The notes: generated from the letters alone by a model not told the origin. 64,000 bases of DNA from Candidatus Omnitrophota bacterium (GCA_022710715.1 JAKLGJ010000003.1:190527-254526), one strand, 5' to 3'; shown: positions 12,816-34,780, numbered from the stretch's first letter. Translations and numbers: made by a program.

Positions 12816-14136
12816 TGTGAATCCTTTTTGAAGATACAACACAACTATTTGTTTGGCATTTCTCAGCTAGCGCCACAATAACAATAAAATACGTCAATGT
12901 TGAAGCACTGCGAGATAGATTATCGGAGAAACTTACAAGAAGATAAAGACACGAAAGTATTGTTACCGTCAAGGAGAATTGTCGAACAATATCATCAGAA
13001 CTATTCCTGAAGACCTTGTAATTTCCAATAGCAAGAGAAATATAAATTAATATATACAATATGCAACCGGGAAGGCCAGTTTCCACAAGTAAGCGAACAT
13101 AATCATTATGGGCATAAACTGATTTCATCTCGGGAAACATGCCTAACCCGACTCCCATAACAGGGTGCTCGTAAAAAAGCGGTAAACCTTCATTCCAAGT
13201 CTTTACTCTCCAAGTCCAAGAATCAGTATAATAGCCATGAGTTCTACCATGCCCAACATCTGCAAATCGCTGAATAATAAGCGGAGAGAACAAAAGAATA
13301 ATTAATATTAACGCTCCAAGAATTTTGAATCGATATTCGCGCACTAAAACAGCAAGAATGGCACACCCAAGAATTGCTGCTAGCCAGGCAGCCCGAGTAA
13401 ATGTCAACAGGAGAAAAATAGAATAGATAAGTAAAAGAATTAAATTAAACGCGCTATTAATTTTAAATTTGTTATAAACCAGATTAACGATTAAAACAAT
13501 CATAATAGTTAATAAAAAGAAGGCAAACATATTTGGATGCACAAAAGTACCATAAATTCTTTTAAAACCAGCATCTACAATACCAACATCCTTCCCGATC
13601 TGCCAGATAGAAAAAAAGATAGGTAAGATTGTTGCTCCTACAAAACTAATAAATATCTTTCTCAATTCACTTTTATCAAATAAATGAAAAGAAATCAACC
13701 CGATCATAAGCAAACCAACAAAACGAAGAAGGTCTATAAAACTTATTACAGGCTTGATCGAAAAGATCGAAGAAAAAGAACAGAAAGCAATAAAGCAAAT
13801 TAAGAGTCTAAAACTCCTGATCTTGAAAATATTTATTTTCTTAAACAACAGGAAAAATATCGAAACGATAATCACTGCTACAGTCATATATGAAGCGAGA
13901 TTCTCTGCGCCAACACCAAAACTTATTCCCGACTTCGAGAAAACATCAAGAAAACTTCTTATGAAAAGATAATACAGCAATCCCAATTTGAGGTTTAAGA
14001 ATAACAACGCAATAAAACCTATAATAAAAAAAGAACTGATAAGTACAACAAAATTAAGCTCATTAAACAACATCAAAACAGAAAAAAAGAGAAAAAGAGA
14101 AACAGACAAAACAACCAAACTTAATGCTCTATGCAT
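12802..14136 (-). CDS. Wzy-type O-antigen polymerase / O-antigen-ligase-like membrane protein.
   Basis: Polytopic; Wzy_C-like motif AHNDYVRLLVETGLPG. Confidence 0.6.
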   Translation of the reverse strand: MHRALSLVVLSVSLFLFFSVLMLFNELNFVVLISSFFIIGFIALLFLNLKLGLLYYLFIRSFLDVFSKSGISFGVGAENLASYMTVAVIIVSIFFLLFKKINIFKIRSFRLLICFIAFCSFSSIFSIKPVISFIDLLRFVGLLMIGLISFHLFDKSELRKIFISFVGATILPIFFSIWQIGKDVGIVDAGFKRIYGTFVHPNMFAFFLLTIMIVLIVNLVYNKFKINSAFNLILLLIYSIFLLLTFTRAAWLAAILGCAILAVLVREYRFKILGALILIILLFSPLIIQRFADVGHGRTHGYYTDSWTWRVKTWNEGLPLFYEHPVMGVGLGMFPEMKSVYAHNDYVRLLVETGLPGCILYILIYISLAIGNYKVFRNSSDDIVRQFSLTVTILSCLYLLVSFSDNLSRSASTLTYFIVIVALAEKCQTNSCVVSSKRIHNETL

Positions 14137-14169
14137 AAATTGCCTTTCTGATCAAAATTAATTTATAGA

Positions 14170-15393
14170 TTAATTACTTAATAATTCCTGAAGCAATTTG
14201 CCGCTCTTGAGAGATTCTTTTTTAAAATTATCAACTCGTTCTCTTAAATATTCAGATATTGAACTTTGCTGGTTCCAAAGCTCCAATATTTTATCGTTAA
14301 CATTTTTCAATTGGAACTCGGCGAGATTTATATAGTAATTCAGAGAATTAAAAACATCGCTATTAATGCCAACAGATTTCAAACTATACCCCAAACTCAA
14401 AGTAGGAACACAAGTAGAAAAAGCTGCAATCGTTGAGTGTGTACGCGTTCCGACGAAAAGTTTGCATTTACTTATAACGTACTTTACCTCATCAGCGGCA
14501 AGATCTTCATCAATTAGAATTACCCTAGGATCCTTCTGAAAAAATCCTTTTATTGCTCTCAAACACGTTAAATCATTATCATGGTCACTAGTCACATGCG
14601 GTATTAATAAGACATTACACGGGATTTTACTCAAGACAAATTGAACAATTTCAATACAATATTTGACCCAAATAGCGAAATTGCCCTTAGCAGCATACTT
14701 AGCAACCAGAGGGCTAAAATTAAAACCAACAAAATGACCTGTCAAGTCTATATTCATTCTGGATAAATCAGGCATTCGCGGCTCCATCATAAACGCAGGA
14801 TCAGTGACTTTATAAACGTTTTCCTTAAGCCCTAAAGAATGGCAATAATCAATCGTTTTGCTTTCACGAGCAAAAATAATTGTACGTCTCAATTGCTCAG
14901 CAATGAACCTTTCATACACGGGATCCTGCGTAAAAGGACCAATTGAAGCACCCCAAATAATTATCGGTTTCCTTTTTCGCAAAACAAAATCATTCAGTCT
15001 AAGAAAGAAATCTGGTCTTCCATAATCCAACGAAAAATTATCTCCCCCAATGGCTAAAACTGCTTGGCTTAAAGCAAGGTCATTACTTATTGTTCTAAAA
15101 ATAACATCTTCATAAAGAGATTCTGACACTCTTTCCAATATTCGCTCAGCAGCCCATGGAAAAGAAAACCTTCTTGGCACCAAATATTTCGCGTGCTTAA
15201 TTTTACCATTGTTTTCACGAACCACTTGTTTCCGATATTGCGCGTTACTAATGAAATTACTATAAACGAGAAATTGAGGATCCTTATAAAAATGAGACAG
15301 AATCGCGTAAGTGCCCTTCACAATCGCTTCACATCCGCGATTTTCATAAGGTCCATTGCCCACAAGAACAAATCGAGTATTAGGGTCAGGCAT
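14170..15393 (-). CDS. Polysaccharide pyruvyl transferase (CsaB/WcaK family).
   Basis: PF04230-like layout; overlaps the downstream FeS gene by 8 nt. Confidence 0.55.
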   Translation of the reverse strand: MPDPNTRFVLVGNGPYENRGCEAIVKGTYAILSHFYKDPQFLVYSNFISNAQYRKQVVRENNGKIKHAKYLVPRRFSFPWAAERILERVSESLYEDVIFRTISNDLALSQAVLAIGGDNFSLDYGRPDFFLRLNDFVLRKRKPIIIWGASIGPFTQDPVYERFIAEQLRRTIIFARESKTIDYCHSLGLKENVYKVTDPAFMMEPRMPDLSRMNIDLTGHFVGFNFSPLVAKYAAKGNFAIWVKYCIEIVQFVLSKIPCNVLLIPHVTSDHDNDLTCLRAIKGFFQKDPRVILIDEDLAADEVKYVISKCKLFVGTRTHSTIAAFSTCVPTLSLGYSLKSVGINSDVFNSLNYYINLAEFQLKNVNDKILELWNQQSSISEYLRERVDNFKKESLKSGKLLQELLSN

Positions 15394-16594
15394 GCAACCT
15401 CACTCCCACAAAAAGCTTAACCAATCGAATAAATTCTTTAACCACAACTTTACAAGACGGCGCACCCAAAACGGACATTCCTGTAACACCAGGGCAATTA
15501 CCAATCAAATTAGCATGTAAAGGATAACAAATTCGCTTGGTTCTGGTATTGATGGTAAAGGCATTCAGAATTGCTTGTAAGCGAAGGTTGTCAGCATGGA
15601 TTTTCTTCGCGTCCACTAAACCATCAACTATCTGCTTACCCTTATCTGAACGGATTATCATTACGTTTGTTCCAATTGTATCCCCTTTTTGCTCGGGTAA
15701 CCAAGCATCACCAAAGGAGATGTCCGAGAAATCGCCGAAGAAATCCTGACAACAATAGCAGGCTAAAGGAGTAAAATATCCGGATCCAAAACATGTTGCC
15801 CACGCATCAGTAGACAATTCACTGATTTCATGCTGATTGTCAACTTTAATCTTAGTTTTCCCGGGCCACCCATCTCCTCTCCATTGAAAATAAGTAACCT
15901 GTGAAGCACTCACTTTATGCTTTTTTAAATAGCGGCTCAAAGCTCTATAAGAAGGCGCTTGATTACAAAACAAAGCAAGAATTAAGACTATAGACTCTTT
16001 TAAAACTTTGTCATGCGACATTGCCTTACGCAATGCAATTGCATGACACGGTAAACATACGACAGCTACCTTACGAGGATTCCTTTTAAGTTCAATTATT
16101 GCTTTATCCAGCGACACAGGACAATACTTTGAACCTTTTGCATTAAAAATTTCCTCTTCGGTCGAAGCAATAAAAGCTTCCGCCCGGACCTCTCTTCCGT
16201 ATTTCAAGCGGGTAACGACCACACCATCAACAACTTTATTTCTTAACAATTCAATCGACATTGTCGTTACCAGCCCACCGGAAGAACAACTAAACCTCAA
16301 ATCACCATTACCAGAATAACCTTTATAAATAGCTTGGAAATTGCCTATTAAGGCATTTTCAGGAGCTTGACCAAAAATCGAAATATTAAGTTCTTTATGA
16401 TCAAAACCAAATCCCGGACAGACTTGCTGGCACTTGCCGCAAAATATACATTTCGTCGTATCTAAAACTGGATAATTAATGCCTTCGGAGGTAACACGAA
16501 TAGTAATTGCTTGTGTCGGACAAATACCCGCACATACTCCGCAGCCGCAACACATAGCTTTAGATAATCTATCAAAAACAGAATTGGTTTTCAT
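15386..16594 (-). CDS. Coenzyme F420 hydrogenase/dehydrogenase beta-subunit-like 2x[4Fe-4S] protein.
   Basis: CGCGVCAGICP and CIFCGKCQQVCP ferredoxin motifs plus a FrhB-like C-terminal domain. A common partner of pyruvyl transferases in CPS/EPS loci. Confidence 0.6.
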   Translation of the reverse strand: MKTNSVFDRLSKAMCCGCGVCAGICPTQAITIRVTSEGINYPVLDTTKCIFCGKCQQVCPGFGFDHKELNISIFGQAPENALIGNFQAIYKGYSGNGDLRFSCSSGGLVTTMSIELLRNKVVDGVVVTRLKYGREVRAEAFIASTEEEIFNAKGSKYCPVSLDKAIIELKRNPRKVAVVCLPCHAIALRKAMSHDKVLKESIVLILALFCNQAPSYRALSRYLKKHKVSASQVTYFQWRGDGWPGKTKIKVDNQHEISELSTDAWATCFGSGYFTPLACYCCQDFFGDFSDISFGDAWLPEQKGDTIGTNVMIIRSDKGKQIVDGLVDAKKIHADNLRLQAILNAFTINTRTKRICYPLHANLIGNCPGVTGMSVLGAPSCKVVVKEFIRLVKLFVGVRLHA

Positions 16595-17832
16595 GCAAAG
16601 GTAGAAAATGAGGACACATCATTCGCTATGTCCGTAGTCTTTAGAACTTTATGTTTGTAGACAACATAGTATGCTGAAACGACCCTAAAGACCCAGGATA
16701 CTAAAGCCGCAAGAGCTGCTCCAGCCAGCCCCCATAAAGGAATTAAGAAAAAATTTAAACAAAGATTAAAGAAAATTCCCAATATGCATGTCCCTAAAAA
16801 CAATTGCAGCAAGTTTTTCGGTAACCTTCCACCAATAATGCCAGCCGGAATCGCATATAAAATCCGAAAAAATCCTGCCGCAATAAAAAAGACTAACAAA
16901 TGGGCTGAATGGTCATATCGGCCTTTGAAAAACCAATGCAGCAATGGCTGACCGGCAAACAAATATCCAATACAAACTACTATGGCGAGTATTCCAGCTT
17001 TAATTGAATCATTTTTAATGGGACGAGAATTATCTTTTGCATAATGCGGCATCATCACAAACCATAAAGCGGTAGCAACTAACTCGAACCCTCGGGTTAC
17101 CGTTATAACCACTACATAATCAGCTAATTTCGAGAAACCAAGCATTTTCGAGATAAAAAATTGATCAACCTGAACCATTACGGTATACGAAAACGTAATA
17201 AAAAAAAGAACTATCCCCTCTTTTACAAATCTGGCGGAAACAGCTTTCTCTCCCGATGGCAAACGATGTGTTACTAGATTACCTAAAACAAAAGTACTAA
17301 AAAAGATCAAGGTATAAACAAAAATAAGTCCCCAAAAGCTAAAAATCTTAAAAACAAAACACATCATTGCTACGCAAACAGAGAAAAAAATAGAATTTGT
17401 TTTACTTAAAAGCATTGACGAAGAATACCTGTCTTGAGACCGTAACAATGCCGAGTAATACTCGGTCCCAACCGCTGCCACGACCGCAAAATAAGCAAAT
17501 AACATTTCCTTCTTTAAATGATACATAAGACCGACAATAATACAACCTACGGCTGCAAACAAAGATGAAAATAACAAGCACGATCGAATAAACTTTTTCC
17601 AGTCATATTCTTTAATGTTCTCTCTATTAAATACGCGTATTATTGCCATATTCTGACCGAATAGTAATAAAGATGATAACATAATAACAACGGTATTAAT
17701 AAATTTAAACCGCCCGAACAAATTCGGGGGCAATAAACGGCCCAGAATAACATTGGTCAACAGTTCAGCAATCGCTGCCACTCCTAATATAATAGACACT
17801 GAACCGACTTTTTGGATTAAACTTGATTTCAT
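16591..17832 (-). CDS. Wzx-type polysaccharide flippase (MOP superfamily).
   Basis: About 12 TM helices; overlaps the upstream gene by 4 nt. Confidence 0.65.
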   Translation of the reverse strand: MKSSLIQKVGSVSIILGVAAIAELLTNVILGRLLPPNLFGRFKFINTVVIMLSSLLLFGQNMAIIRVFNRENIKEYDWKKFIRSCLLFSSLFAAVGCIIVGLMYHLKKEMLFAYFAVVAAVGTEYYSALLRSQDRYSSSMLLSKTNSIFFSVCVAMMCFVFKIFSFWGLIFVYTLIFFSTFVLGNLVTHRLPSGEKAVSARFVKEGIVLFFITFSYTVMVQVDQFFISKMLGFSKLADYVVVITVTRGFELVATALWFVMMPHYAKDNSRPIKNDSIKAGILAIVVCIGYLFAGQPLLHWFFKGRYDHSAHLLVFFIAAGFFRILYAIPAGIIGGRLPKNLLQLFLGTCILGIFFNLCLNFFLIPLWGLAGAALAALVSWVFRVVSAYYVVYKHKVLKTTDIANDVSSFSTFA

Positions 17833-17850
17833 TGATTATACCCTTATTCC

Positions 17851-18336
17851 TTACTTTATTTCCTCAAACAACTCCCCATTATCATACTCCGCCGGAAGCA
17901 CCAGATGCGCTGGCTTGCCGAACAGGCAGTCGCCTTCCTTATAAAACCCTTCGGCGATGAGCTCGGAGCAGACAAACCGCCGCTTGCTGCTGAAGAGCCG
18001 GTGCAGCCCCTCCCCTATGCGCGTAAACAATAGCGACAGCGGGAACCAGAAGAACTGCAAAGTATCGTAAGGCAGGTTGTTCATGGTCGCCCACCAGAGC
18101 GCGACTTTGTAGCGCTGGCGCTCGGACTGGCCGCGGCGGCGCAGGTGCTTGATCTGTATGCCCTTATCCAGGTAGGACTGCTTTAGATTGACCAGGCGGG
18201 AGCGCGGGATGCCGGCTTCGATGCAGGTATAACCGCCTAAACAGCCCAGCACGTGAGTCCATTTGCTGCTGTCGCCATAGCCGGCCTGAACCTGCGTTTT
18301 CTCGATAAGCTGATTGTGTCCGGCGACCAGGATCAC
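17851..18336 (-). CDS. YiiX / peptidase C92 family (permuted papain-fold) protein; N-terminus appears disrupted.
   Basis: GDVILVAGHN...SSKWTHVLG and FVCSELIAEGF match YiiX GDLVF...SPWSHVG and YCSEFV. Only a GTG lying inside the conserved GDV motif is available as start. GC higher than the neighbouring island. Confidence 0.4.
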   Translation of the reverse strand: MILVAGHNQLIEKTQVQAGYGDSSKWTHVLGCLGGYTCIEAGIPRSRLVNLKQSYLDKGIQIKHLRRRGQSERQRYKVALWWATMNNLPYDTLQFFWFPLSLLFTRIGEGLHRLFSSKRRFVCSELIAEGFYKEGDCLFGKPAHLVLPAEYDNGELFEEIK

Positions 18337-22673: not shown

Positions 22674-22754
22674 AAAAAAGGGGACACAGCAATTTGCAAA
22701 GGGGACACATCTGTCCGATTTTCTCGACGAGCCGTTTTGGGTGGACCTGTCCCC
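22674..22754 (-). repeat. REP-like element copy G, immediately 3' of the sugar transferase gene. Followed by a perfect 21-bp tandem duplication (22747-22788) spanning the REP end and the gene's last codons.
   Basis: GGGGACACAGCAATTTGCAAAGGGGACACATCTGTCCG...GGGTGGACCTGTCCCC; CTGTCCCCTATTTCGCGCCGA repeated twice. Confidence 0.8.
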
Positions 22755-22774
22755 TATTTCGCGCCGACTGTCCC

Positions 22775-24193
22775 CTATTTCGCGCCGATGCCGAGGATAA
22801 CCGCAGGCACGGTTTTGGCGATGATCTTGGCGTCGAGCCACAGGGACCAGTTGTCGATGTAATCCAGGTCCAGCTTGACCCATTTGGCGAAATCCACGAT
22901 CTGATTGCGCCCGGAAACCTGCCAGAGGCAGGTGATGCCCGGCCGCATGGAAAGCCTGCGGCGGTGCCAGGCGTCGTATTCCTTGACTTCCAAGGGCAAC
23001 GGCGGACGCGGCCCCACGGTGCTCATATCCCCGCAGAACACGTTCCATAATTGCGGCAGCTCGTCGATGGAAAACTTGCGCAGGATGCGGCCCAGCCAGG
23101 TCACCCTGGGGTCGTTTTTCATCTTGAACACCGGGCCGGTCATCTCGTTATGCACGCGCAATTCGTTCAATTTCATCTCCGCGTCTTTGATCATGGTGCG
23201 GAATTTGTACAGGGTGAAAATGCGGCCGTTAAGCCCCACCCGTTTCTGCCGGAAGAATACCGGCCCCGCGGAAGTCACTTTTATCAAGAGCGCCACGATC
23301 AGGAAAAAAGGCGACAGCGCCACAAGCAGGACGCCGGCAAAAACAAAATCGAAAACGCGCTTGATCAGCAGATGCCAGAGTTTATCCGGCGTGGAATCAA
23401 AGGTCAACAGGGGAAATTTGCCCAGCTCCCCGACTTTAGCCCGGGAGAACTGCATCTCGAAATAATCCACGGCCACGTGTATCTTCAAACCTTCCATTTC
23501 GCACAGATAGAGGATATCCTCGATCTTGTTCAGCCAGGAACGCGGGATCACGAAAACCACCTCATCGATCACCATGCTGCGCAGGATCAGGGGCATGTCC
23601 TTGAAGGTCCCCAGGACTTTCACCCCTTCCACGCTCTCCCCCTTCTTGCCCGGATCGTCGTCGATGATGCCGGCGAGCTTGTACCCCCAGGAAGAATGCT
23701 CCTTGATCAACTGGATGAATTGCTGGGCGCGTTTGTTGGTGCCCACCACCAGGAGATATTTGACGTTGAAGCCGCGGCGGCGGATCAGGCGGAAAAACAG
23801 GATGAGAAATATTTTCGAAGCCAGAGTCAACACCGTGGCGATGCCGAAGACCAGCAGGATGAACGCGCGGCTGATCTCATGCAGCCGGAATAAATAGATC
23901 ACGCTGGAGTAAAATACGAACCCCACGAAAGCGGTGCGCAGCACGATCAGCCAGATATCCCAGAGCGGCTTGGTGCGAAAGGATTCGTACATTTTGAACC
24001 AATAGAGCAATCCGCTCCAGGTGAAAACGAACAGCGGCAGCAGGCCGACGTATTCGTTCAACGGATGGATCATGCCCATGCTATCGCTCAAATAACCGCG
24101 GAATTCGAAGCCGATGAGGAATGACGCGGCGGCAATGAACATATCCACGAAAACCGCTGTTTTTCTAAGCATTGAAATGCGTTCTTTAAGCAT
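22775..24193 (-). CDS. Polyprenyl-phosphate glycosyl-1-phosphate transferase (WbaP/EpsL-type initiating sugar transferase).
   Basis: N-terminal TM bundle plus a C-terminal bacterial sugar transferase domain (KRVFDFVFAGVLLVALSPFFL...FRQKRVGLNGRIFTLYKFRTM). Confidence 0.8.
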   Translation of the reverse strand: MLKERISMLRKTAVFVDMFIAAASFLIGFEFRGYLSDSMGMIHPLNEYVGLLPLFVFTWSGLLYWFKMYESFRTKPLWDIWLIVLRTAFVGFVFYSSVIYLFRLHEISRAFILLVFGIATVLTLASKIFLILFFRLIRRRGFNVKYLLVVGTNKRAQQFIQLIKEHSSWGYKLAGIIDDDPGKKGESVEGVKVLGTFKDMPLILRSMVIDEVVFVIPRSWLNKIEDILYLCEMEGLKIHVAVDYFEMQFSRAKVGELGKFPLLTFDSTPDKLWHLLIKRVFDFVFAGVLLVALSPFFLIVALLIKVTSAGPVFFRQKRVGLNGRIFTLYKFRTMIKDAEMKLNELRVHNEMTGPVFKMKNDPRVTWLGRILRKFSIDELPQLWNVFCGDMSTVGPRPPLPLEVKEYDAWHRRRLSMRPGITCLWQVSGRNQIVDFAKWVKLDLDYIDNWSLWLDAKIIAKTVPAVILGIGAK

Positions 24194-25584: not shown

Positions 25585-25968
25585 TCATTGTTTTTGGGAG
25601 AGCGTTTGGCTGATGCACTCAATGAGTTTCTGGGTGGTGACCGGCTTGGCCAGGAACGGACGGCCGCCGATGTTGCCTTTCTGGGCCTCTACCTCTTTGT
25701 CGCTGACGATCGCGGTGAGAAAAACGACCGGAATGCGGGAGAGTTCGGGATCGTTCTTGAGTTCGGCGAAGATGTCCACGCCGCTCAAATCCGGCATGAT
25801 AATGTCCAGAAAGATCATTTCCGGCTTGAATTCCTTGATCACCGGTATGGCCAGGAGCCCGCGGGATTCGGTACGCACTTCGAAATCGCCGGCCGCTTCA
25901 AGGTTCAATTTGACCATCCGGGCAAAAGATTCTTCGTCGTCTATGATGAGAATTTTACGCTTGGCCAT
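25585..25968 (-). CDS. Single-domain response regulator (REC only).
   Basis: ILIIDDE...D...K receiver motifs. Confidence 0.8.
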   Translation of the reverse strand: MAKRKILIIDDEESFARMVKLNLEAAGDFEVRTESRGLLAIPVIKEFKPEMIFLDIIMPDLSGVDIFAELKNDPELSRIPVVFLTAIVSDKEVEAQKGNIGGRPFLAKPVTTQKLIECISQTLSQKQ

Positions 25969-25979
25969 GGGCAGCCTCC

Positions 25980-27266
25980 TTACAGCTTAAGCAACAGCAC
26001 CGTTCGCACCCCGCCGATGGGCCGGTTTTTAACCACGATGCTGGCATTGTGCATATCCATAATGTTTTTCACGATGGGAAGGCCCAATCCGGTGCCTCCC
26101 TTGCCCTGCTTGGTGGTGACAAAAGGGAAAAAGATCTTGTCGATCATTTCCGGCGGTATGCCGCTGCCGGTGTCTTCGATCTCCAGCACCACCACCGTAT
26201 CCTTGAGCGCGAAATCCGCCGCGGGATCGACGTCTTCGGGCGGGACTTTGGAGAATTCCCTGACATTGGTGCGCAAGGTCAGGATGCCTCCCGAAGCCAT
26301 AGCGTCGACGGAATTCATCACCAGGTTCATGATCACCTGTTCGATCTTGATCCTGTCCACGTTCACGAACAATTGTTCGTGCCAGAATTCCTTGACCACG
26401 CCGATATGGAACTTGCTGAATTCGTGCTTCATCAGCAGCAGCGAATTCTCGATGAGCTGGTGCAGATTGTGGCGGCCGAACTGTATTTCCGACACGCGCG
26501 AGAAATCCAGCAAACCTTTGATGATGCTATCCGCGCGAACCACGGCTTCGCTCATGTAGTTCAAAGTGGAAGCCACATTCTCGTTGTCGGAACGCACGGT
26601 GCGGTAAAGGTATTCTATTCCCTGCAGGATGATCGCCAGGGGATTTTTGACTTCATGAGCCACTCCCGAAGCCAGGCGGCCGACCACCTCCATCTTTTCG
26701 GAATAGACCAGTTGCGCCTGGGTATCCTTGACCTCGGCGTAAGCGGCCATCAGGTCGCTTTCGGCTTTTCTGCGTTCTTCGATCTCCCTGGTCAACTGCT
26801 CGTTGGCATCGATAAGTTCGGCGGTGCGTTCGGACACGCGCAGTTCAAGTTCGTCGCGGACCCGGCGCAGATCGTCTTCGATACGCTTGCGCTCGATGGC
26901 GTAGCGGATGCTGCGCACCAGCAACCGGCTGTCCACCTGGCCTTTAACCAGGTAATCCTGGGCGCCCTGGCGCACGGCATTGATGGCGAACGTCTCATCG
27001 TTGATGCCGGTCATCACGATAATAGGCATCTGGGGAAACGCGGTGTAGGCGTTCAAAAAGGTCTGGAATCCGTCGGAATCCGGCAGCATCAGATCGAGTA
27101 GGACCACGTCGAACAACGTGTCTTTGAGCCGCTGCAGACCGGCGGCAAGGGTAGTGGCGATTTCGATTTCAAACGGCTGGTTGGATTGCTTGAGCAGATC
27201 GGAGAGCGTGACCGCGATGAGATTATTGTCCTCGATCATCAAAACCCGGATGGTTTGATTGTCCAT
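25980..27266 (-). CDS. Hybrid sensor histidine kinase (N-terminal REC, coiled coil, HisKA, HATPase_c).
   Basis: VLMIEDN...DLMLPD; H-box SGVAHEVKNPL; G boxes. Confidence 0.8.
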   Translation of the reverse strand: MDNQTIRVLMIEDNNLIAVTLSDLLKQSNQPFEIEIATTLAAGLQRLKDTLFDVVLLDLMLPDSDGFQTFLNAYTAFPQMPIIVMTGINDETFAINAVRQGAQDYLVKGQVDSRLLVRSIRYAIERKRIEDDLRRVRDELELRVSERTAELIDANEQLTREIEERRKAESDLMAAYAEVKDTQAQLVYSEKMEVVGRLASGVAHEVKNPLAIILQGIEYLYRTVRSDNENVASTLNYMSEAVVRADSIIKGLLDFSRVSEIQFGRHNLHQLIENSLLLMKHEFSKFHIGVVKEFWHEQLFVNVDRIKIEQVIMNLVMNSVDAMASGGILTLRTNVREFSKVPPEDVDPAADFALKDTVVVLEIEDTGSGIPPEMIDKIFFPFVTTKQGKGGTGLGLPIVKNIMDMHNASIVVKNRPIGGVRTVLLLKL

Positions 27267-27291
27267 AGTGGTTTAGATTGTACCACAAATT

Positions 27292-28128
27292 CTACGGCTG
27301 CACAAGGTTAACTAAAGGCGCGAGCGCATCTACGCCGCTTTTGCCGCTGTAATCGGGTTGAGGCGGGTCAGCCTGGTACAGAACACCCAGAGGGATACGT
27401 TCTCCCCATTCCAGGGATTTAGTCAACGCCCAGACCAGGTCCGCAGGCCGGTAATCCGGCTGCGCGGCCGCCTGATAAACCCGCTGGGAGTACCACTCAT
27501 GGGTATTCTTTTTATTGAAGGTCACGCAGGGCTGAAGCACGTCGATCAGCGCGAATCCCTTGTGCCGGATGCCGGCCAGGATCAGGCCGGATAGAGATTC
27601 GCTGTCCCGGGAAAAACCGCGGGCGACAAACCCGGCGCCCGCGGCAATAGCCAGAGTCAGCGGCGAAAGATGCGCGTTGATCACTCCCCCGGTCTGCACC
27701 GCGGTCTTCAGACCTTCATCGGTGGTAGGCGAAGCCTGGCCTTTAGTCAGGCCGTAGATCTGGTTGTCGTGCACGATCACGGTGATGTCGATATTGCGGC
27801 GGATGGCGTGGATGAAATGGTTGCCGCCCTCGCCGTAACAATCGCCGTCGCCGGTAGTAACCAGCACGGTCAATTGCCGGTTGGCGATCTTGATCCCGGT
27901 AGCCACCGGCAGCGCCCGGCCGTGCAAACCGTTAAAACAATTGGCCTTGATATAATGCGGCAGCTTGGCCGCCTGGCCGATACCGGAAACCAGCATCAGC
28001 TCTTGAGGCGGTTTGCCCAGTTGAGCCAGGGCTTTTTTTACCGCGTTAAGGATGCCGAAATTCCCGCATCCCGGGCACCAGGCTATTTCGTCTTGAGTTT
28101 TAAAATCCGCAGTATCCATATCAGGCAA
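27292..28128 (-). CDS. korB: 2-oxoacid:ferredoxin oxidoreductase, beta (TPP-binding) subunit.
   Basis: CPGCG...GDGD.YGEGGNHFIHA TPP motif. Confidence 0.8.
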   Translation of the reverse strand: MPDMDTADFKTQDEIAWCPGCGNFGILNAVKKALAQLGKPPQELMLVSGIGQAAKLPHYIKANCFNGLHGRALPVATGIKIANRQLTVLVTTGDGDCYGEGGNHFIHAIRRNIDITVIVHDNQIYGLTKGQASPTTDEGLKTAVQTGGVINAHLSPLTLAIAAGAGFVARGFSRDSESLSGLILAGIRHKGFALIDVLQPCVTFNKKNTHEWYSQRVYQAAAQPDYRPADLVWALTKSLEWGERIPLGVLYQADPPQPDYSGKSGVDALAPLVNLVQP

Positions 28129-29842
28129 TGAGTTGATGAAAAAGCTCGTCCACGGTAAACGGACGGCCGTCGTATTTGAGGATCGAATCGCTGACTTTGA
28201 TCCCGGTTTCCCTGCGCAGCAGTTTCGCCAGTTGCGCGCCGGCGTTATTTTCCACGGTCACGATCCGGCGCGCGTCGTTGAGCAGATACGCCATTTCCTG
28301 CGCGGGGAACGGCCAGACCTGCGGCAGATGAATGAAACCCACGCGCTCCCGGCCGGAACCGCCGGCATGAGCGGCTTCTTTCATCACCCCGTATACCGAA
28401 CCGCACCCGATGAGGATAACGTGCGCTCCGGCGATATTCTCGCTGACCGGCTTTACCGCTTCCTGCGACAATAAACGCATGCGCTTATGATAGCGCTTCT
28501 CCACCATGCGCACGCGCATCAAAGCGTCTTCGGTGATATGCCCTTCTTCATTATGCTCGTCGCTATCCGCGTAAACGGGGTCCGCGACCCAGGATGGGAC
28601 TGCCCGGGGGGAAACGCCGTTCTCGGTCAGCGCGTAGCGTTTATAACCGGCGACTTTTTTCGAGGCTTCGCGGGAAATCAATCCCCGCTCGATTTTTACC
28701 CCGGGATCAAGCGGGGCGATATCCCGTACCGAATCCGCCAGCAGCTGGTCGGACATGATGATGACCGGGACCTGGAATTTTTCCGCGGTATTGAACGCTC
28801 TGGCCGTCAGGGAATATAACTCTTCGACGGTGCCCGGGGTATAGATGACGCGGCCGAATTCCCCGTGACCGGCGGCAAGGATGAAATCCAGATCCGCCTG
28901 CTCGGTGCGGGTCGGGAATCCGGTGGCAGGGCCGGGCCGCTGCGCGTCCAGTATCACCAGCGGGGTCTCGGTCATGCCCGCCAGACTTAACCCCTCGACC
29001 ATCAGGCAGAACCCGCCGCCGGAAGTCGAAGTCATGGACCGCACGCCGGCGAATGAGGCGCCGATGACCATGTTCACCGCGGCGATCTCGTCTTCGGCCT
29101 GCTCGACGATGATGTCGAATTCCTTGGCGCGCGCGGCGATCTCGTTCATCACCCCGGTAGACGGGCTCATGGGATACGCGCTGTAGAATTTACAACCGGC
29201 GCGTATCGCGCCTAACGCCACCGCTTCGCTGCCGCTGACCACCGAACGCTCCCGGGTATCGCCGGGTTCGACCGAATACAATCCGTTTCTTCTCTCCCGC
29301 CCGGCAAATTCGTACCCGGACCGGGCGCAGGCGATGTTTATGTCGACGATCTCCGGAGACTTATCGCTGAACGTACCGCGCAACGCTTTTTCCACGCAGG
29401 AAACATCCAGCTCCATGATCCCCGCGATCATTCCGCAGGCTACCGCGTTGACAAAAATATCCTTGCCCCCTTTTTCCATCGCCAGATCGTATAAAGGCGC
29501 GTCGAGGATCGCCCCGGGCACCGTCTCCGGCAGGTTTACCGGCCCGAATTTCTTCTGATCCGCGATAAGCAGACCGTCCGCGGCCAGCGCGGAAGCGTGC
29601 AATGCGGGACTGGCCTTATCCAGGCAGACGATGATCTCGCACCGGGAGCGCGCGGCGTACACGGGTCTGGAGGAAATACGTATCTGGAAAAAATTGTTTC
29701 CGCCGCGGATGCGGGACATGAAATCCTGATGCGCGAAAAGGCGCAGGTGGGCGTTCTGGCACATGAGGGACAGGACCTGGCCGATGGTTTGAGTGCCCTG
29801 CCCGGCTTCCCCGCAAATACGGATGGAGAGTTCGCTAACCAT
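28121..29842 (-). CDS. korA: 2-oxoacid:ferredoxin oxidoreductase, fused gamma-alpha subunit.
   Basis: N-terminal POR catalytic (gamma) domain GEAGQGTQT plus an alpha domain. Start trimmed to MVSELS with GAGGT RBS. Confidence 0.75.
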   Translation of the reverse strand: MVSELSIRICGEAGQGTQTIGQVLSLMCQNAHLRLFAHQDFMSRIRGGNNFFQIRISSRPVYAARSRCEIIVCLDKASPALHASALAADGLLIADQKKFGPVNLPETVPGAILDAPLYDLAMEKGGKDIFVNAVACGMIAGIMELDVSCVEKALRGTFSDKSPEIVDINIACARSGYEFAGRERRNGLYSVEPGDTRERSVVSGSEAVALGAIRAGCKFYSAYPMSPSTGVMNEIAARAKEFDIIVEQAEDEIAAVNMVIGASFAGVRSMTSTSGGGFCLMVEGLSLAGMTETPLVILDAQRPGPATGFPTRTEQADLDFILAAGHGEFGRVIYTPGTVEELYSLTARAFNTAEKFQVPVIIMSDQLLADSVRDIAPLDPGVKIERGLISREASKKVAGYKRYALTENGVSPRAVPSWVADPVYADSDEHNEEGHITEDALMRVRMVEKRYHKRMRLLSQEAVKPVSENIAGAHVILIGCGSVYGVMKEAAHAGGSGRERVGFIHLPQVWPFPAQEMAYLLNDARRIVTVENNAGAQLAKLLRRETGIKVSDSILKYDGRPFTVDELFHQLIA

Positions 29843-29849
29843 GATCTTA

Positions 29850-30575
29850 TTATACCTCTTTTTCAGGCAAAGGGGAAACCCTGCGTTTGCGCGCCAGCGC
29901 ATAGATTGCCACCGGCAGCGCTATCGCAACGAAAGCCGCGGCGGCAACTATGATGAACCCCGGCGAAAACAGCTCATGGTACGAATGAACCTCGCCCAGC
30001 CGGCTGCCGAAGTACGCCGAGATAAAAGCCCAGGGAATGCTCCCCAGCAGCGTGGCCCAGAAATAATCCCTGAAGCGCACTTCCAGCAGGCCGCAGCCGT
30101 AATTCAGCACTTCGTAGGGAACCAGGGGAATGAGCCGGCAGACCAGCACGGTGATGAATCCGCGCTGCTTCAGGGTCTGGTCGAGTTTTTTGAGTTTGCC
30201 CTTGAGCATTTTTTCGACGAAAGAACGGCCGGCGTAGCGCGCGATGAAAAATGTGCAGCTCGAACCTGTCACTGCGCCCAGGAGCAGACATGCCGCGCCC
30301 CGGAGCGGGCCGAAAGCCAGGCCGGCTGCCAAAGAAAGCATGCCGATAGGCGGCAGGATGGAAATGGTGTTGAGTGCATACGCCAGCACGAAGACCGCCA
30401 TGGCGCCGTGGCCGAATTGCCGCAGGTAAACGCGCAGGGCTGCGGGATTGAGCTGATGGATCTGCGGCCAGAAGCGGCGGATCAACCACCAGGCAAGCAG
30501 GACGCAGCCGGCCAGAAGCGCCAGTTTAGCGACGAACGCGAGCGTTTTTCGATTTCCGAAACGGGAAGCGGTCAT
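29850..30575 (-). CDS. TVP38/TMEM64 (DedA-superfamily) membrane protein.
   Basis: Typical TVP38 motif region GxxxGxxxxF...RLIPxxP. Confidence 0.6.
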   Translation of the reverse strand: MTASRFGNRKTLAFVAKLALLAGCVLLAWWLIRRFWPQIHQLNPAALRVYLRQFGHGAMAVFVLAYALNTISILPPIGMLSLAAGLAFGPLRGAACLLLGAVTGSSCTFFIARYAGRSFVEKMLKGKLKKLDQTLKQRGFITVLVCRLIPLVPYEVLNYGCGLLEVRFRDYFWATLLGSIPWAFISAYFGSRLGEVHSYHELFSPGFIIVAAAAFVAIALPVAIYALARKRRVSPLPEKEV

Positions 30576-30582
30576 GTATGTT

Positions 30583-31458
30583 TTACCGGTAGATGATAAG
30601 GATACAGGCGGACAGCCACAGGGCCAGGTTGATCTGGATGGCCCGGTCCGCGAGCAGGATGCGCGTGGGATCTCCCTCCTGCGCTTCCAGCCGGGTCAGG
30701 TACAGATAGCGGAATAAGCCGAAAAAGACAAAGGGGATGGTGACGATCATCCAGTGCGAACCGATGCGGCGCACGGTTTCGTTGTCGATGGTATACAGCA
30801 CATAGACGACCGCGATCGCGGCGGCGGCGATGGTGATCATCTGCTCCAGCAGAGGCAGGTCGTACTGCTCGAGCACCGAACGGTGATGCTGATCTTTTTC
30901 TTTCAGCAAGCGCATCTCCTGCTTGCGCTTGATAAAACCCAGGAACGATGCCAGCAGTACGGTCAACAAAAGTATCCAGACGGAAACCGCGACCTGGGCC
31001 ACGATCGCGCCGGCGATGATGCGCATCAGGAAAAAAATCGCCAGGCAGGCGACATCCAGCAGAAATATTTTTTTCAGCACGGTCGAATAGAGCACATTGA
31101 GCAGGATATACACGACGATGACCAGACCCAGCAGCATGGAGCAGCGAAAAGCCGCTGCCAGGGCGATCAGGGTCAACGCGCTTGCTCCGGCCACTGCCAC
31201 CCGTCTGCGGATCAATCCCGCAGCGATCGGGCGCAGGCGTTTGACCGGATGCACCGCGTCGGCGCGCATATCGATGACGTCATTGACCAGATAGGCCGCG
31301 CTCGAGGCCAGGCAAAAGATCCCGAAAGCCAGACTCGCGTTGATATTCTCCGGAAAACTGAACAGCCTGCCGCCGAATATCAGCGGGCAGAAAACAAAAA
31401 AGTGTTTAACCCATTGCTGGGGGCGCAAAGCGCGTAAGAAATGATAAATGTGCTTCAT
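30583..31458 (-). CDS. UbiA-family prenyltransferase resembling decaprenyl-phosphate phosphoribosyltransferase (DPPR synthase).
   Basis: NDVIDMRADAVHPVKRLRPIAAGLI Asp-rich motif; about 9 TM helices. Confidence 0.6.
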   Translation of the reverse strand: MKHIYHFLRALRPQQWVKHFFVFCPLIFGGRLFSFPENINASLAFGIFCLASSAAYLVNDVIDMRADAVHPVKRLRPIAAGLIRRRVAVAGASALTLIALAAAFRCSMLLGLVIVVYILLNVLYSTVLKKIFLLDVACLAIFFLMRIIAGAIVAQVAVSVWILLLTVLLASFLGFIKRKQEMRLLKEKDQHHRSVLEQYDLPLLEQMITIAAAAIAVVYVLYTIDNETVRRIGSHWMIVTIPFVFFGLFRYLYLTRLEAQEGDPTRILLADRAIQINLALWLSACILIIYR

Positions 31459-33107
31459 CGGTAGATCGCGGTGAGCATGGAGATGAGAGTAAAATTATTG
31501 TATCCCGCCAGGATGATCAACCCCATGCACAGGATACGCAATGCCGTCCGGTGCTTGGCCAAACCCAGGAATACCAGCATCAGGAGCAGCAGCGTAACAT
31601 TGCCGCTGTAGGTGAACAGTTCTGCCCGCCCGTAGGAGTTGACGCCGTAGAAACAATGCAGCAGCACATTGAACCCCAGGCACAGGGATAATCCCGTGAT
31701 CACCGGAGAACCGGATAAGCCGGACACGCCTCCCCGATCGGCAGCTTCGAATTTACTCATCTTATCCGTAACCTGCTGCACATTGACCGCCAGGCCGCTT
31801 GCCAGAGCAGCCAGCCAGAAGATCAAAGCGGACATTCCCAGCGAGCCGAAATACCATCCGGAGGAAAATGACAGCGCCGGATATATCCGGCCGGGCGCGA
31901 GCAGGATATCCGGAACAGGCGCGACCACATTGAAGATGAACAACTGGCGGATGACGTGTTTAAATGTCTCCCAGGGCTGCTGGAAGAGAAATCCCGACGC
32001 GAATCCCTGCTCGCCCAGGATCTTCCAGGAAACAAAGATCTCGCTCGACGAGTAGATCAGCTTCTGCGCCAGTGACAAAAACAGGCTGATACCGAATACC
32101 GCGGCTGCCCAGAGCAGTGCGCGCGCCAGGCGATGTTCCTTTTTATCTACCGCCAGCGCGACAGCCAGACAGATCCCGGTCTGCATGAGATTGGTTACAG
32201 TCACGCCGAAGGAAAAAACACCCAGCGCCACCCACAGGGAAAGATTCACCCGGCGGGAGCGCGCCGACTGGAGAAAAACCAGATACGTCGCGGCCAGGCT
32301 GCACACCGCCCAGGCCTGCGTATCCGGCACCGCACCGAAGAACAACTGGCTGAAGGACAGCCCGAAAACCAGCGTTGCCAGGAATGCGTCGAGATAGAAA
32401 GTCACTATCCGGCGGAAGATCAAAAAAGCCAGGACTGTCGCCGCCCCCCCGCATCCGGCAGTCAACACTACTGCCGCGCGCGCCGACGAATGCAGCGCCG
32501 CTGCCAGCGGCACTCCCCAGGGATGTACAAGCAGCGCGAACAACGGATGCACGAACGCGCGATGGAATTGCGGCGCGGCGCCGGCGATAGTATCGATCAC
32601 CTGCGGAGCGTCGAGCTGGAACATCAGGTTCTCCGCGCTCAAAGCCATGCCGCGCTGGAACGCCATCCCGAAATACAGATACACCAGCCAGAATACAACG
32701 CCCGTGCTCACGCAGGCCGCGGCGACAGGCAAAGTGCGCGAGAGGGAAAAAGGCAGCGCGGCATTGAGTTTTCGCAGCAGATTGATCCTCTCCTGCCGGG
32801 CGCATTGTTTGATCGCGGCGAGATTACGGATAAACAGGAACAGATACGCGGCTGCGCCGGTAAAAAGTATGCTGATAAGAAAAAGGTAGGATTGGGTTTT
32901 GCCGTAGTAATACGCGAGCGGATGCGCGCCCCGGTTGTGGAACAACTGCGCCGCCGGACCCGCGCCGGAACCGTCATAGATCTGGCGCACCAGCAGGCGG
33001 CCATAGGAAAAATAAATGATCCACACCAGGAAGAGAAAACCGCCTACGACGCACAGGAATGCCGGCAGGGTCAATTGCCGCGCCGCGGATTTACGTTCGG
33101 TAACCAT
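31455..33107 (-). CDS. Polytopic membrane protein, possibly a GT-C-type glycosyltransferase.
   Basis: About 14 hydrophobic segments with large loops; 4-nt overlap with the UbiA gene. No confident family assignment by eye. Confidence 0.3.
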   Translation of the reverse strand: MVTERKSAARQLTLPAFLCVVGGFLFLVWIIYFSYGRLLVRQIYDGSGAGPAAQLFHNRGAHPLAYYYGKTQSYLFLISILFTGAAAYLFLFIRNLAAIKQCARQERINLLRKLNAALPFSLSRTLPVAAACVSTGVVFWLVYLYFGMAFQRGMALSAENLMFQLDAPQVIDTIAGAAPQFHRAFVHPLFALLVHPWGVPLAAALHSSARAAVVLTAGCGGAATVLAFLIFRRIVTFYLDAFLATLVFGLSFSQLFFGAVPDTQAWAVCSLAATYLVFLQSARSRRVNLSLWVALGVFSFGVTVTNLMQTGICLAVALAVDKKEHRLARALLWAAAVFGISLFLSLAQKLIYSSSEIFVSWKILGEQGFASGFLFQQPWETFKHVIRQLFIFNVVAPVPDILLAPGRIYPALSFSSGWYFGSLGMSALIFWLAALASGLAVNVQQVTDKMSKFEAADRGGVSGLSGSPVITGLSLCLGFNVLLHCFYGVNSYGRAELFTYSGNVTLLLLMLVFLGLAKHRTALRILCMGLIILAGYNNFTLISMLTAIYR

Positions 33108-33216
33108 GCGTCCATTATACCACTAAAAAAGAAAAGAGAGCTCTGATTTTGAACCCTCTTTTGAGAAACGCTGCGCTGCATGAGCCGGATCGGCGTTACC
33201 GCCTCTATTATGCCGA

Positions 33217-33579
33217 TCAGGCAACAGTCACTTTTTTCATTTTGGTGAAATAGATCCCCAGCCGGTGCGAATGATGATCCTCGTTGACCACATTGGAACG
33301 CACCTCGCCCAGAGCTTCCATCGGGCCGGAAAGCTTGACCACGTCATTATCCACTTTGAGCAGAGTGAAACGCATGGACAGGATAGTGGAAATAGGAATA
33401 TCTTTATCCGTCAATAAAGCCATCCCGGTCTGGCTGATATCGAGCATCTGGGCCTGGATATCCTGGCCGCCGAGCATGACTTTGGTGGTAGACGGTTCAT
33501 TGGTCCGGTAGACTACCGTGCAGTTCATGCGCATGCGTTTGCTGGTTCGACGGTCCGTGCCGGAAAAAATTCTGTTCAT
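33217..33579 (-). CDS. PilZ-domain (c-di-GMP-binding) protein.
   Basis: RRxxxR-like DRRTSKRMR and DxSxxG-like DISQTGMAL motifs. Start at MNRIFS with AAAGGAG RBS. Confidence 0.55.
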   Translation of the reverse strand: MNRIFSGTDRRTSKRMRMNCTVVYRTNEPSTTKVMLGGQDIQAQMLDISQTGMALLTDKDIPISTILSMRFTLLKVDNDVVKLSGPMEALGEVRSNVVNEDHHSHRLGIYFTKMKKVTVA

Positions 33580-33882: not shown

Positions 33883-34116
33883 CTACATCTGGGTGATGGC
33901 TTCCTGGATCATGGGCATGATCCCTTCGATCTCTTCTTTAGTCAGCCTGCCGAGTTTGGCAAAACGGTAGTTGCCTTCCTGATCCTGATTTTCGCGCACG
34001 ATCTGAAGCTTCTTGGGGCCGTTATTATAGGAATACACGCTGACCACGATTTTCTGGTTCTCTTTGGTCCAGGCCTTGGAAAACAGTTGTTCGTCAAGAT
34101 TGCTATCGTAAGGCAT
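33883..34116 (-). CDS. Small PC4/YdbC-like ssDNA-binding protein.
   Basis: AWTKENQKIVVSVYSYNNGPKKLQIVRENQDQEGNYRFAKLGRLTKEEIEGI pattern resembles bacterial YdbC. Confidence 0.4.
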   Translation of the reverse strand: MPYDSNLDEQLFSKAWTKENQKIVVSVYSYNNGPKKLQIVRENQDQEGNYRFAKLGRLTKEEIEGIMPMIQEAITQM

Positions 34117-34205: not shown

Positions 34206-34286
34206 TCAAAAGGGGACACAGCAAATTTCAAAGGGGACACATCTGTCCGATTTTCTCGACGAGCCCCAAGGGGTGGACCTGTCCCC
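34206..34286 (-). repeat. REP-like element copy H, overlapping the cheW stop codon.
   Basis: Near-identical to copy G. Confidence 0.8.
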
Positions 34287-34780
34287 TATGCGAGGAGTTC
34301 GGCGGCGAGCGAGACGTCTTCGGTCAGGACTTTGTCGATGTCGAGCAGGATCTTGACCTTGTCGCCGATCTTACCCATGCCGGTGATAAAATCCGTGTGC
34401 ACTTTGTTGCCGAAACTCGGCGCCGGCTCGATATTGTCCTGGGATATATCCAGCACCTCGCACACCCGGTCGACGGCGATGCCCATAAGCGAATTGTTGA
34501 CGTTGAGCACGATGATGCAGGTCTCGTTGGTATAATCGTGCTTAGGCATCCCGAATTTCAAACGCAGGTCGATCACCGGGATCACTTTTCCGCGCAGGTT
34601 GATCACGCCTTTAACGTAATCCGGCACCTGGGGGACCGCAGTGATCTCCATCAGCCCGATGATCTCGCGCACTCCCAGGATCTCCAGGCCGTACTCTTCA
34701 TGTCCCAGGGCGAAGGTGAGGTATTTTCCTTCCTTAGCCAGGGCCTGAACCATAGTATTGGATTTCTCATTGCTTGGCAT
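34286..34780 (-). CDS. cheW: Chemotaxis coupling protein CheW.
   Basis: CheW-like domain LTFALGHEEYGLEILGVREII...VINLRGKVIPVIDLR. Confidence 0.85.
   Translation of the reverse strand: MPSNEKSNTMVQALAKEGKYLTFALGHEEYGLEILGVREIIGLMEITAVPQVPDYVKGVINLRGKVIPVIDLRLKFGMPKHDYTNETCIIVLNVNNSLMGIAVDRVCEVLDISQDNIEPAPSFGNKVHTDFITGMGKIGDKVKILLDIDKVLTEDVSLAAELLA

Follow-up and report, generated by a model that had tools for sequence, protein, structure and literature searches.

Introduction

What do a large membrane protein, a UbiA-type prenyltransferase, a TVP38-type membrane protein, and a 2-oxoacid:ferredoxin oxidoreductase have to do with one another, and does the PilZ protein encoded beside them control what they do? 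Genes for all of these are packed almost end to end in a 64,000-nt stretch of DNA from a Candidatus Omnitrophota bacterium (GCA_022710715.1, JAKLGJ010000003.1:190527-254526), the whole of which we call the window. An original prediction had read them as an operon that joins the oxidoreductase genes (korAB) to a lipid-linked sugar pathway for periplasmic glycan modification, with PilZ hinting at control by cyclic di-GMP (c-di-GMP). Our analysis, in which the genes within 64 kb were covered by public gene calls and their Pfam labels, indicates that the core of this reading—a putative synthase of a lipid-linked pentofuranose donor together with a putative periplasmic glycosyltransferase of the type C (GT-C) fold—is well supported by computation. 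We think it probable that the GT-C and UbiA genes, possibly with the gene for the TVP38-type protein (hereafter VTT, after its domain), specify a version of the three-component system for extracytoplasmic pentofuranose glycosylation. The korAB genes, two genes for two-component proteins, and the PilZ gene appear to be neighbors in a densely packed small genome, with promoters of their own and outside the system.

Results

A putative donor synthase of the DPPR-synthase type

What kind of prenyltransferase does the UbiA gene encode? The 291-aa product matches the general UbiA family (PF01040, E 5e-20, residues 40-261) and scores 253.1 bits on NF008977, the model for decaprenyl-phosphate phosphoribosyltransferase, above that model's cutoff of 234. 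DPPR-synthase (DPPRS) models give 253, 204, and 162 bits, against 28.8 for heme O synthase, 23.5 for chlorophyll synthase, and 22.8 for 4-hydroxybenzoate prenyltransferase. The original description of the protein as DPPR-synthase-like is thus borne out (at least 162 bits on the DPPRS models and at most 29 on the heme O and UbiA models), and the scores show no grouping with menaquinone or heme O prenyltransferases. Judged by sequence, the protein is of the DPPRS type rather than a prenyltransferase of menaquinone, heme O, or ubiquinone synthesis, and its activity is predicted to depend on phosphoribosyl pyrophosphate (PRPP).

The residues expected of such an enzyme are in place. Aligned with 25 homologs, the protein shows no variation at N59-D60-xx-D63-xxx-D67 or R178-xx-E181; these residues form the NDxxDxxxD motif of cytoplasmic loop II and the RxxE motif of loop IV, and they correspond to residues that were mutated in ORF15 of Citrobacter youngae (N247, D248, D251, D255, R366, and E369), most of which are needed for activity and whose equivalents are required for activity of the Mycobacterium tuberculosis DPPRS in vitro (PMC11127046). 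Pfam and NCBIfam identify no extra domain and no fused HAD/PRP phosphatase in the protein. Homologs with 30-50% identity are common well outside Actinobacteria, among Omnitrophota, Aminicenantes, and Bradymonadia, and occur also on plasmids or other replicons of Bacteroidota, Alphaproteobacteria, Legionella, Vibrio, Lactococcus, and haloarchaea.

A protein of predicted GT-C fold in an uncharacterized family

Is the 550-aa membrane protein a glycosyltransferase? Its earlier designation as a candidate GT-C was a guess made without a family match, and classification with hidden Markov models, the check proposed at the time, assigned it to no family: neither Pfam nor NCBIfam yields a match, even at E ≤ 10. 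The guess has since been substantiated by the predicted fold and by a conserved acidic loop residue. For the AlphaFold2 model (predicted local distance difference test 89.7, more than 12 helices), the 21 top structural matches share the GT-C fold without exception; 19 of them are GT-C glycosyltransferases, with match figures of 17.6 for ArnT, 17.1 for Pmt4, 16.8 for ALG9, 15.8 for AftB, 15.5 for PglB, 13.2 for AftA, and 12.6 for AftD; EmbA is also among them. As modeled, the protein has a GT-C fold, and it would be expected to act as a glycosyltransferase.

By sequence the protein belongs to an uncharacterized family of its own, distantly tied to DUF6080 (PF19558). A word-index search returned the identical protein and seven weak matches labeled DUF6080 (E 3.5e-11 to 1.9e-6), and an exhaustive HMMER search gathered 612 cluster representatives at E ≤ 1e-3, 74 of them at E ≤ 1e-30, from Omnitrophota, Chloroflexota, Planctomycetota, Bacteroidota, and others. 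About residues 130-550 make up the conserved core; the N-terminal ~130 aa, which include predicted membrane helices, are an extra region relative to DUF6080. Tested directly against PF19558, the window protein has no match at E ≤ 10, so that the relationship is seen through the word-index and profile matches: the family profile matches a DUF6080 protein (E 9.5e-61), and PF19558 hits 10 of 67 family members. Fused domains aside, these 67 sequences (the window protein and its relatives) match only DUF6080 or no family. DUF6080 has no function on record, and we found no mention of it in the literature searched. Among PDB sequences, the family profile retrieved only chance-level matches to adiponectin receptors (E ≥ 0.32).

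Four residues (D166, H187, P188, and H484) are invariant in the family, within which the motif LF(E/Q)xDxP...H.R..VHP recurs. D166, invariant both among the 67 sequences and in a 12-sequence alignment, lies in the first predicted periplasmic loop, a 59-residue segment (151-209) that follows a helix and carries few positive charges; the preceding loop (100-123) has five lysines or arginines. This arrangement suggests that D166 is a candidate catalytic base in the first extracytoplasmic loop.

Some family members carry additional domains. P0187 has an N-terminally fused HAD-IB phosphatase domain, which, like the PRP domain of a HAD-UbiA fusion, is HAD-IB-like. BLASTP gave no alignment between the two domains, and the fusion is only suggestive. 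The C-terminal ~350 aa of P0156, P0158, P0176, P0177, and P0195 form a common soluble domain that matches no Pfam family (stretches FLFGMGNR...YRDAAMM...DNLGE), and P0219 begins with a BNR/sortilin beta-propeller; such extra domains may be acceptor-binding or processing modules.

Recurrent pairing of GT-C and UbiA genes

How widespread is the pairing of these two genes? We compared 26 other loci of the GT-C family, 80 metagenomic UbiA loci (L041-L120), and three loci of close UbiA homologs, ~110 in total. A DPPRS-type UbiA gene directly adjoins the GT-C-family gene in 5 of the 26 (L010, L013, L022 [Planctomycetia], L026 [Saprospiraceae], and L038 [Planctomycetales]), which makes UbiA the commonest Pfam family among the neighbors. 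In L013 the order is that of the window, a GT-C gene followed by an overlapping UbiA gene, at identities of only 33% and 44%. In L026 the partner is HAD-UbiA, a 506-aa fused protein built like C. youngae ORF15 in its domains, and the locus has another GT-C paralog close by. Partnering of the two genes is frequent, not obligatory, and the recurrence of the pair fits a predicted lipid-linked pentose pathway for periplasmic glycan modification.

The donor synthase also has other partners. The closest UbiA homolog (49% identity, from another member of Omnitrophota, L008) adjoins a PMT_2-type GT-C, and a homolog in Legionella adelaidensis (L040) adjoins a GT39-type GT-C. In both, a UbiA gene of the same clade stands next to a large GT-C membrane protein, as in the window; the partner belongs to a different sequence family, and our GT-C family profile does not detect partners of the L008 or L040 type. 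DPPRS-type synthases evidently partner with several unrelated GT-C families.

Among the 92 immediate-neighbor genes scanned from the 80 metagenomic loci, a GHMP-kinase gene repeatedly follows UbiA (six cases), alongside four NAD-dependent epimerases, four PMT_2 GT-Cs, and three MOP-family flippases. The UbiA-GHMP kinase pairing (e.g., L105, 5424-7907) falls outside the published three-component scheme.

Comparison with known systems and a proposed pathway

How does the pair relate to characterized pathways? In biochemical work, Kelly et al. (PNAS 2024, PMC11127046) established that the C. youngae O1/O2 O antigen is decorated with alpha-pentofuranose in the periplasm. Three components are involved: a polyprenyl-phosphoribose synthase (ORF15, PPPRS-PRP), which is a PRPP-using DPPRS homolog with a fused HAD phosphatase, a MATE flippase (ORF14), and a GT-C (ORF12), the founder of CAZy family GT136; epimerases turn the ribofuranose into xylo- or arabinofuranose. 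The same study reported that such systems are widespread outside Actinobacteria and that most of their GT-C genes are annotated as hypothetical. The original proposal of a lipid-linked sugar pathway outside Actinobacteria is therefore supported in substance—by the DPPRS-type UbiA, the predicted GT-C fold, and the recurrent pair—and was already known in kind. What is new here is the uncharacterized GT-C family, the lack of a fused phosphatase, and the possible DedA-type flippase; the type of pathway was established in 2024.

Like the C. youngae system, the window has a DPPRS-type UbiA gene adjoining the gene of a GT-C-fold enzyme, with the NDxxDxxxD and RxxE motifs common to both synthases, in a cluster beside a polysaccharide biosynthesis locus; as in serotype O1, there is no epimerase, and ribofuranose is indicated. 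Unlike ORF15, the UbiA protein lacks the HAD (PRP) domain, and unlike C. youngae, the cluster holds a TVP38-type DedA protein in the position of a MATE or SMR transporter. ORF12 is annotated as EpsG-like (EpsG family in CDD), a match that the window GT-C lacks, and by annotation the two would appear to belong to different families; the window model also lacks the C-terminal carbohydrate-binding module of the C. youngae GT-C.

The mycobacterial decaprenyl-phospho-arabinose pathway (Rv3806c DPPRS, Rv3807c phosphatase, DprE1/DprE2, Rv3789, and the Emb/Aft GT-C arabinosyltransferases) follows a similar logic, in which a polyprenyl-phosphate pentofuranose donor feeds GT-C enzymes. Its first enzyme is of the same family as the window UbiA, which is ~32% identical to actinobacterial homologs, and AftB, AftA, AftD, and EmbA are among the structural matches noted above. 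In contrast to mycobacteria, the window has no DprE1/DprE2, PAP2 phosphatase, or GtrA-like/SMR transporter, and arabinose is not indicated; the source organism is a Gram-negative-type member of Omnitrophota, for which decoration of a glycan is likely and arabinan polymerization is not.

From these parallels, a pathway can be proposed. On the cytoplasmic face, the UbiA-type enzyme would move ribofuranose-5-phosphate from PRPP onto polyprenyl phosphate, as its family and intact motifs indicate. A phosphatase, for which we found no gene in the window, would then remove the 5-phosphate. Because the 64 kb contain no epimerase of the DprE1/DprE2 or ORF13 type, ribofuranose is predicted by default, and the donor would probably stay polyprenyl-P-ribofuranose. 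Its transfer to the periplasmic leaflet, the weakest step of the scheme, might be carried out by the co-transcribed TVP38-type DedA protein. The GT-C enzyme, with its invariant D166, would pass the pentofuranose to an acceptor, most plausibly the exopolysaccharide of the Wzx/Wzy locus downstream.

Transcription units and the place of korAB and PilZ

Which genes are likely to be expressed together? The five genes and the overlapping or nearly abutting junctions described originally are all there, with matching coordinates, strand, and spacing (Table 1), and independent public assemblies of the same organism, which match the window at 100% protein identity and include a 1.62-Mb JGI metagenome contig, carry identical gene calls. 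GT-C and UbiA share 4 nt (ATGA), and the gaps that follow measure 7 nt (UbiA-VTT), 7 nt (VTT-korA), and 1 nt (korA-korB).

Table 1. Genes and putative signals in and around the cluster (window positions)
Feature	Position	Strand	Description
Promoter-like site of PilZ gene	33771-33743
PilZ gene	33217-33579	minus	120 aa, single-domain PilZ protein
Weak terminator-like hairpin and T-run	33132-33162	minus	PilZ/GT-C interval, from consensus scan; 12 pairs (4 G-C), then CTTTTTTAGT
GGTATAAT box, -10-like	33114-33121	minus	6 nt 5' of GT-C ATG
550-aa membrane protein gene (GT-C)	31455-33107	minus	Polytopic; proposed periplasmic pentofuranosyltransferase
UbiA gene	30583-31458	minus	291 aa; polyprenyl-phosphate 5-phosphoribosyltransferase (DPPRS/PPPRS) clade
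VTT/TVP38 gene	29850-30575	minus	241 aa; TVP38/TMEM64-type (COG0398), DedA superfamily; candidate lipid flippase/scramblase
GGTATAAT box, -10-like	29849-29856	minus	Within last VTT codons, 6 nt 5' of korA ATG
korA	28121-29842	minus	573 aa; 2-oxoacid:ferredoxin oxidoreductase, alpha subunit
korB	27292-28119	minus	275 aa; 2-oxoacid:ferredoxin oxidoreductase, beta subunit
TGTGGTACAAT box	27277-27284		10 nt 5' of hybrid kinase start
Hybrid response-regulator/histidine kinase gene	25980-27266		25-nt gap from korB
Response regulator gene	25585-25968		11-nt gap from hybrid kinase gene
GGTA[TC]AAT box	17835-17842		2 nt 5' of Wzx start
GGTA[TC]AAT box	3753-3760		6 nt 5' of alternative ATG of exosortase gene
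Exosortase-associated Wzx/Wzy exopolysaccharide locus	3731-25395		From Pfam labels on database gene calls

The octamer GGTA[TC]AAT occurs 12 times on the two strands of the window, and four copies lie 2-10 nt 5' of database-called starts, with a fifth at the alternative start of the exosortase gene. By our estimate, ~0.06 copies would fall at called starts by chance (~62 starts, 11 offsets, 12 motifs, and 128,000 positions); in a looser random-position control, the observed five were reached in 0.45% of trials. The pattern suggests that these octamers are -10 boxes driving leaderless transcripts. A GGTATAAT box precedes the GT-C gene and none precedes UbiA or VTT; the three genes are therefore probably one transcription unit with a common promoter and a leaderless transcript. 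By the same pattern, the korAB genes and the kinase gene each have a probable promoter of their own. The positions of the boxes also suggest that leaderless or near-leaderless transcription is common in the source genome.

Is the oxidoreductase part of the system? Both subunits are clearly identified (korA on TIGR03710, 602 bits against a cutoff of 483; korB on TIGR02177, 354 bits, above cutoff). The scan found no terminator-like site in the 7-nt VTT-korA gap, so read-through into korAB is likely. The korA box, in the same arrangement as at the GT-C gene, speaks against a functional bond, as does the absence of kor genes from the neighborhoods of all 26 GT-C-family, 80 metagenomic UbiA, and three close UbiA loci. 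A metagenomic relative, L123, adds to this. Aligned with window positions 27255-30045, L123 (1-1894) shows a clean deletion of ~2.7 kb that runs from VTT codon ~193 through all but the last seven korB codons, removing korAB and the last predicted VTT membrane helix and joining UbiA, a C-terminally truncated VTT, and the kinase gene (92% identical), with the TGTGGTACAAT box intact. We rejected L123 as evidence that korAB was inserted in the window: the junction alignment shows a deletion in L123, and VTT homologs cover the lost C terminus. The adjacency of korAB is most likely lineage-specific gene packing with no functional meaning.

What of PilZ? The protein matches PF07238 (E 1.4e-8), and its translation retains intact c-di-GMP motifs (RTSKR for RxxxR and DISQTG for DxSxxG), so it is plausibly a c-di-GMP receptor. 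The gene is preceded by a promoter-like site of its own, and a hairpin and T-run lie between it and the GGTATAAT box of the GT-C gene. No PilZ gene was found near any of the comparison loci of the three kinds. Rfam gave nothing at or above threshold, either for the entire window or for the intergenic regions flanking PilZ. The suggestion that c-di-GMP controls the glycosylation genes through PilZ is not upheld; PilZ appears to form a separate transcription unit whose link to those genes is one of position and most likely incidental.

Between the CheW and PilZ genes lies a minus-strand gene for a 77-aa protein with no Pfam family on record (33889-34115). On its 5' side are a strong terminator-like hairpin (34203-34175), a GGTATAAT box at 34155, and a Shine-Dalgarno-like AGGAGGAG.

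The TVP38-type protein

Could the VTT protein move the donor across the membrane? It contains a VTT domain (PF09335, VTT_dom, E 5e-32), which it shares with the UptA flippases of COG0586, and it falls far short of the cutoffs of the UptA models (36.1 bits vs. 250 on NF052604; 25 vs. 300 on NF052605). Its homologs are named TVP38/TMEM64 or YdjX by their sources, which points to COG0398. According to Todor et al. (2023), residues linked to undecaprenyl-phosphate transport are missing from COG0398 DedA proteins, which frequently occur as fusions with pyridine-nucleotide-disulfide oxidoreductases; these proteins are unlikely to be undecaprenyl-phosphate flippases and are probably phospholipid scramblases. 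Homologs with ~50% identity are common, several of them named Omnitrophota or Omnitrophica.

The VTT gene starts 7 nt after UbiA with no promoter-like box between them, and the two genes are likewise adjacent in L123, with identities of 79% for UbiA and 74% for VTT. Besides L123, only 1 of the ~110 other UbiA or GT-C loci has a VTT gene within ~1 kb of UbiA by the VTT profile, in the order UbiA, GHMP kinase, VTT (L105). Given the subfamily, the scores on the UptA models, and the rarity near UbiA, the role as a flippase suggested for TVP38 gains little support. We regard membership of the VTT protein in the glycosylation system as possible but less likely than not. The fuller proposal, in which the DUF6080-related family (~600 cluster representatives) would consist of GT-C polyprenyl-phosphate-pentofuranose transferases and a TVP38/COG0398 DedA protein would also move the donor here, we consider unlikely.

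The exopolysaccharide locus and the proposed acceptor

What might the sugar be transferred to? An exosortase-associated exopolysaccharide locus begins ~5 kb downstream of the UbiA gene, on the same strand. It encodes an EpsL-like outer-membrane protein, a priming phosphoglycosyl transferase, a Wza-like exporter, a chain-length kinase, a nucleotidyltransferase, Wzx, a FrhB-like protein, a pyruvyl transferase, Wzy, two GT2 enzymes, a deacetylase, a WecG-type transferase, EpsI, and the exosortase EpsH. A close parallel exists on a plasmid of Vibrio alfacsensis, where a HAD-UbiA gene and the gene for a small EamA-family (SMR-like) transporter lie inside an XrtA/PEP-CTERM polysaccharide locus; by the family profile, the hypothetical proteins of that locus are unrelated to the GT-C family. 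A DNA search of Escherichia coli genomes with the Vibrio HAD-UbiA gene found nothing. Because of the nearby locus and the Vibrio parallel, the exopolysaccharide appears to be the most plausible acceptor, an assignment made from position only.

Several other features of the locus deserve mention. At window positions 10000-18000, which span the Wzx, Wzy, GT2, and pyruvyl-transferase genes, G+C content drops to 35-40%, against 54-59% in the flanks, a pattern typical of the segment of a polysaccharide locus that determines serotype and is exchanged laterally. A single gene within this minus-strand locus runs on the plus strand (8645-10933); its 762-aa product has no recorded Pfam family, and TGTGATATAAT precedes it, 7 nt 5' of an ATG. 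An intergenic element of ~85 nt is present in seven copies (2069-2149, 2840-2920, 3493-3573, 3667-3747, 5319-5399, 22677-22778, and 34209-34289), with the consensus AAAGGGGACAGGTCCACCC...CTCGTCGAGAAAnTCGGACAGATGTGTCCCCTTTnAAATTTGCTGTGTCCCCTTTT and three GGGGACA/TGTCCCC boxes, one inverted and two direct, spaced by 50 and 21 nt; TGTCCCCTTT occurs 31 times with at most one mismatch, vs. 3.8 expected. Most copies are in the exosortase/exopolysaccharide locus, among them one directly beside the GGTATAAT box of the exosortase gene; another is upstream of the 77-aa gene near PilZ. The element might serve as an array of binding sites for a regulator, or it might be a small mobile or REP-like repeat.

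Discussion

Does the evidence as a whole favor a pentofuranose glycosylation system, and how much of the cluster does it include? Several findings weigh against the reading that we prefer. No UbiA gene lies near 21 of the 26 GT-C-family loci, and none of the 80 metagenomic UbiA loci has a GT-C-family neighbor. Neither the cluster nor the window contains a gene labeled as a HAD/PRP or PAP2 phosphatase, or a donor flippase of the MATE, SMR, or GtrA type; the window has a single MOP-family gene, which encodes Wzx in the exopolysaccharide locus. By its sequence, the VTT protein belongs to a DedA subfamily judged unlikely to flip undecaprenyl phosphate, one VTT homolog of ~50% identity sits among redox genes with no UbiA, and the acceptor was chosen by proximity. 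The points about VTT count toward a narrower unit, in which only GT-C and UbiA belong together, TVP38 is a scramblase or housekeeping DedA protein that shares their transcript or is linked to redox genes, and the flippase and phosphatase are encoded elsewhere. We give this version a little less than an even chance. The lack of transport residues and the oxidoreductase fusions reported for COG0398, the redox context of an Omnitrophota-type homolog, the single VTT gene near UbiA among ~110 loci, and the truncated VTT of L123 all favor it, whereas the 7-nt spacing with no intervening promoter-like box, the adjacency kept in L123, the independent order in L105, and the lack of any other flippase candidate in the cluster speak for a VTT protein that takes part. 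At the other extreme, the UbiA homolog might make some other prenylated product and the 550-aa protein might be GT-C-like with another role, so that there would be no glycosylation system at all. In its favor, UbiA is only ~32% identical to the actinobacterial enzymes, and no characterized member of the GT-C family was found in the literature searched; against the score above the equivalog cutoff, the intact catalytic motifs, the uniformly GT-C structural matches, the invariant acidic residue in the first periplasmic loop, and the recurrence of the pair, which includes a HAD-UbiA fusion, we regard it as very improbable.

A single functional operon from GT-C through korAB, coupling 2-oxoacid oxidation to glycan modification under PilZ and c-di-GMP control, strikes us as very unlikely. 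The tight spacing (gaps of 1-7 nt and a 4-nt overlap), the probable read-through, and the intact PilZ motifs speak for such an operon, but korA has its own box, kor and PilZ genes are absent from all the comparison loci, L123 has lost korAB while its UbiA, VTT, and histidine kinase genes persist, and PilZ is set off from the GT-C gene by a promoter-like box and by a hairpin with a T-run. Furthermore, none of the steps described for the pentofuranose pathway in the literature consulted needs a 2-oxoacid oxidoreductase or ferredoxin (PMC11127046). A different acceptor for the pair is somewhat unlikely and deserves more weight: lipopolysaccharide or lipid A, a protein (compare pilin arabinosylation in Pseudomonas), or a cell-wall polymer. 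The acceptors of known GT-Cs with polyprenyl-phosphate donors include lipids (ArnT), proteins (PMT, Pseudomonas pilin), and polysaccharides (Emb/Aft, ORF12), the 550-aa protein has no carbohydrate-binding module, and korAB and two signaling genes stand between the cluster and the exopolysaccharide genes; on the opposite side are the start of the locus within 6 kb on the same strand and the HAD-UbiA and small transporter genes within the Vibrio XrtA locus. Our preferred explanation thus remains a GT-C/UbiA pair, possibly joined by VTT, that would add a pentofuranose to an extracytoplasmic glycan.

What would such a system mean? The adjacency of korAB, which made the locus look odd, appears to be without biological meaning. 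If the assignment holds, it would give the first functional handle on a large uncharacterized family of membrane proteins, DUF6080 and its relatives, and it would extend the pentofuranose decoration pathway described in 2024 to uncultured Omnitrophota and to exosortase-type exopolysaccharides. If, in addition, the TVP38 protein is a flippase, this would bear on the function of COG0398 DedA proteins, now tied to phospholipids only: it would supply their first defined lipid substrate and their first role with a polyprenyl-phosphate sugar. That one type of donor synthase pairs with several GT-C families unrelated to one another is relevant to glycoengineering and to the prediction of glycan structures from genomes.

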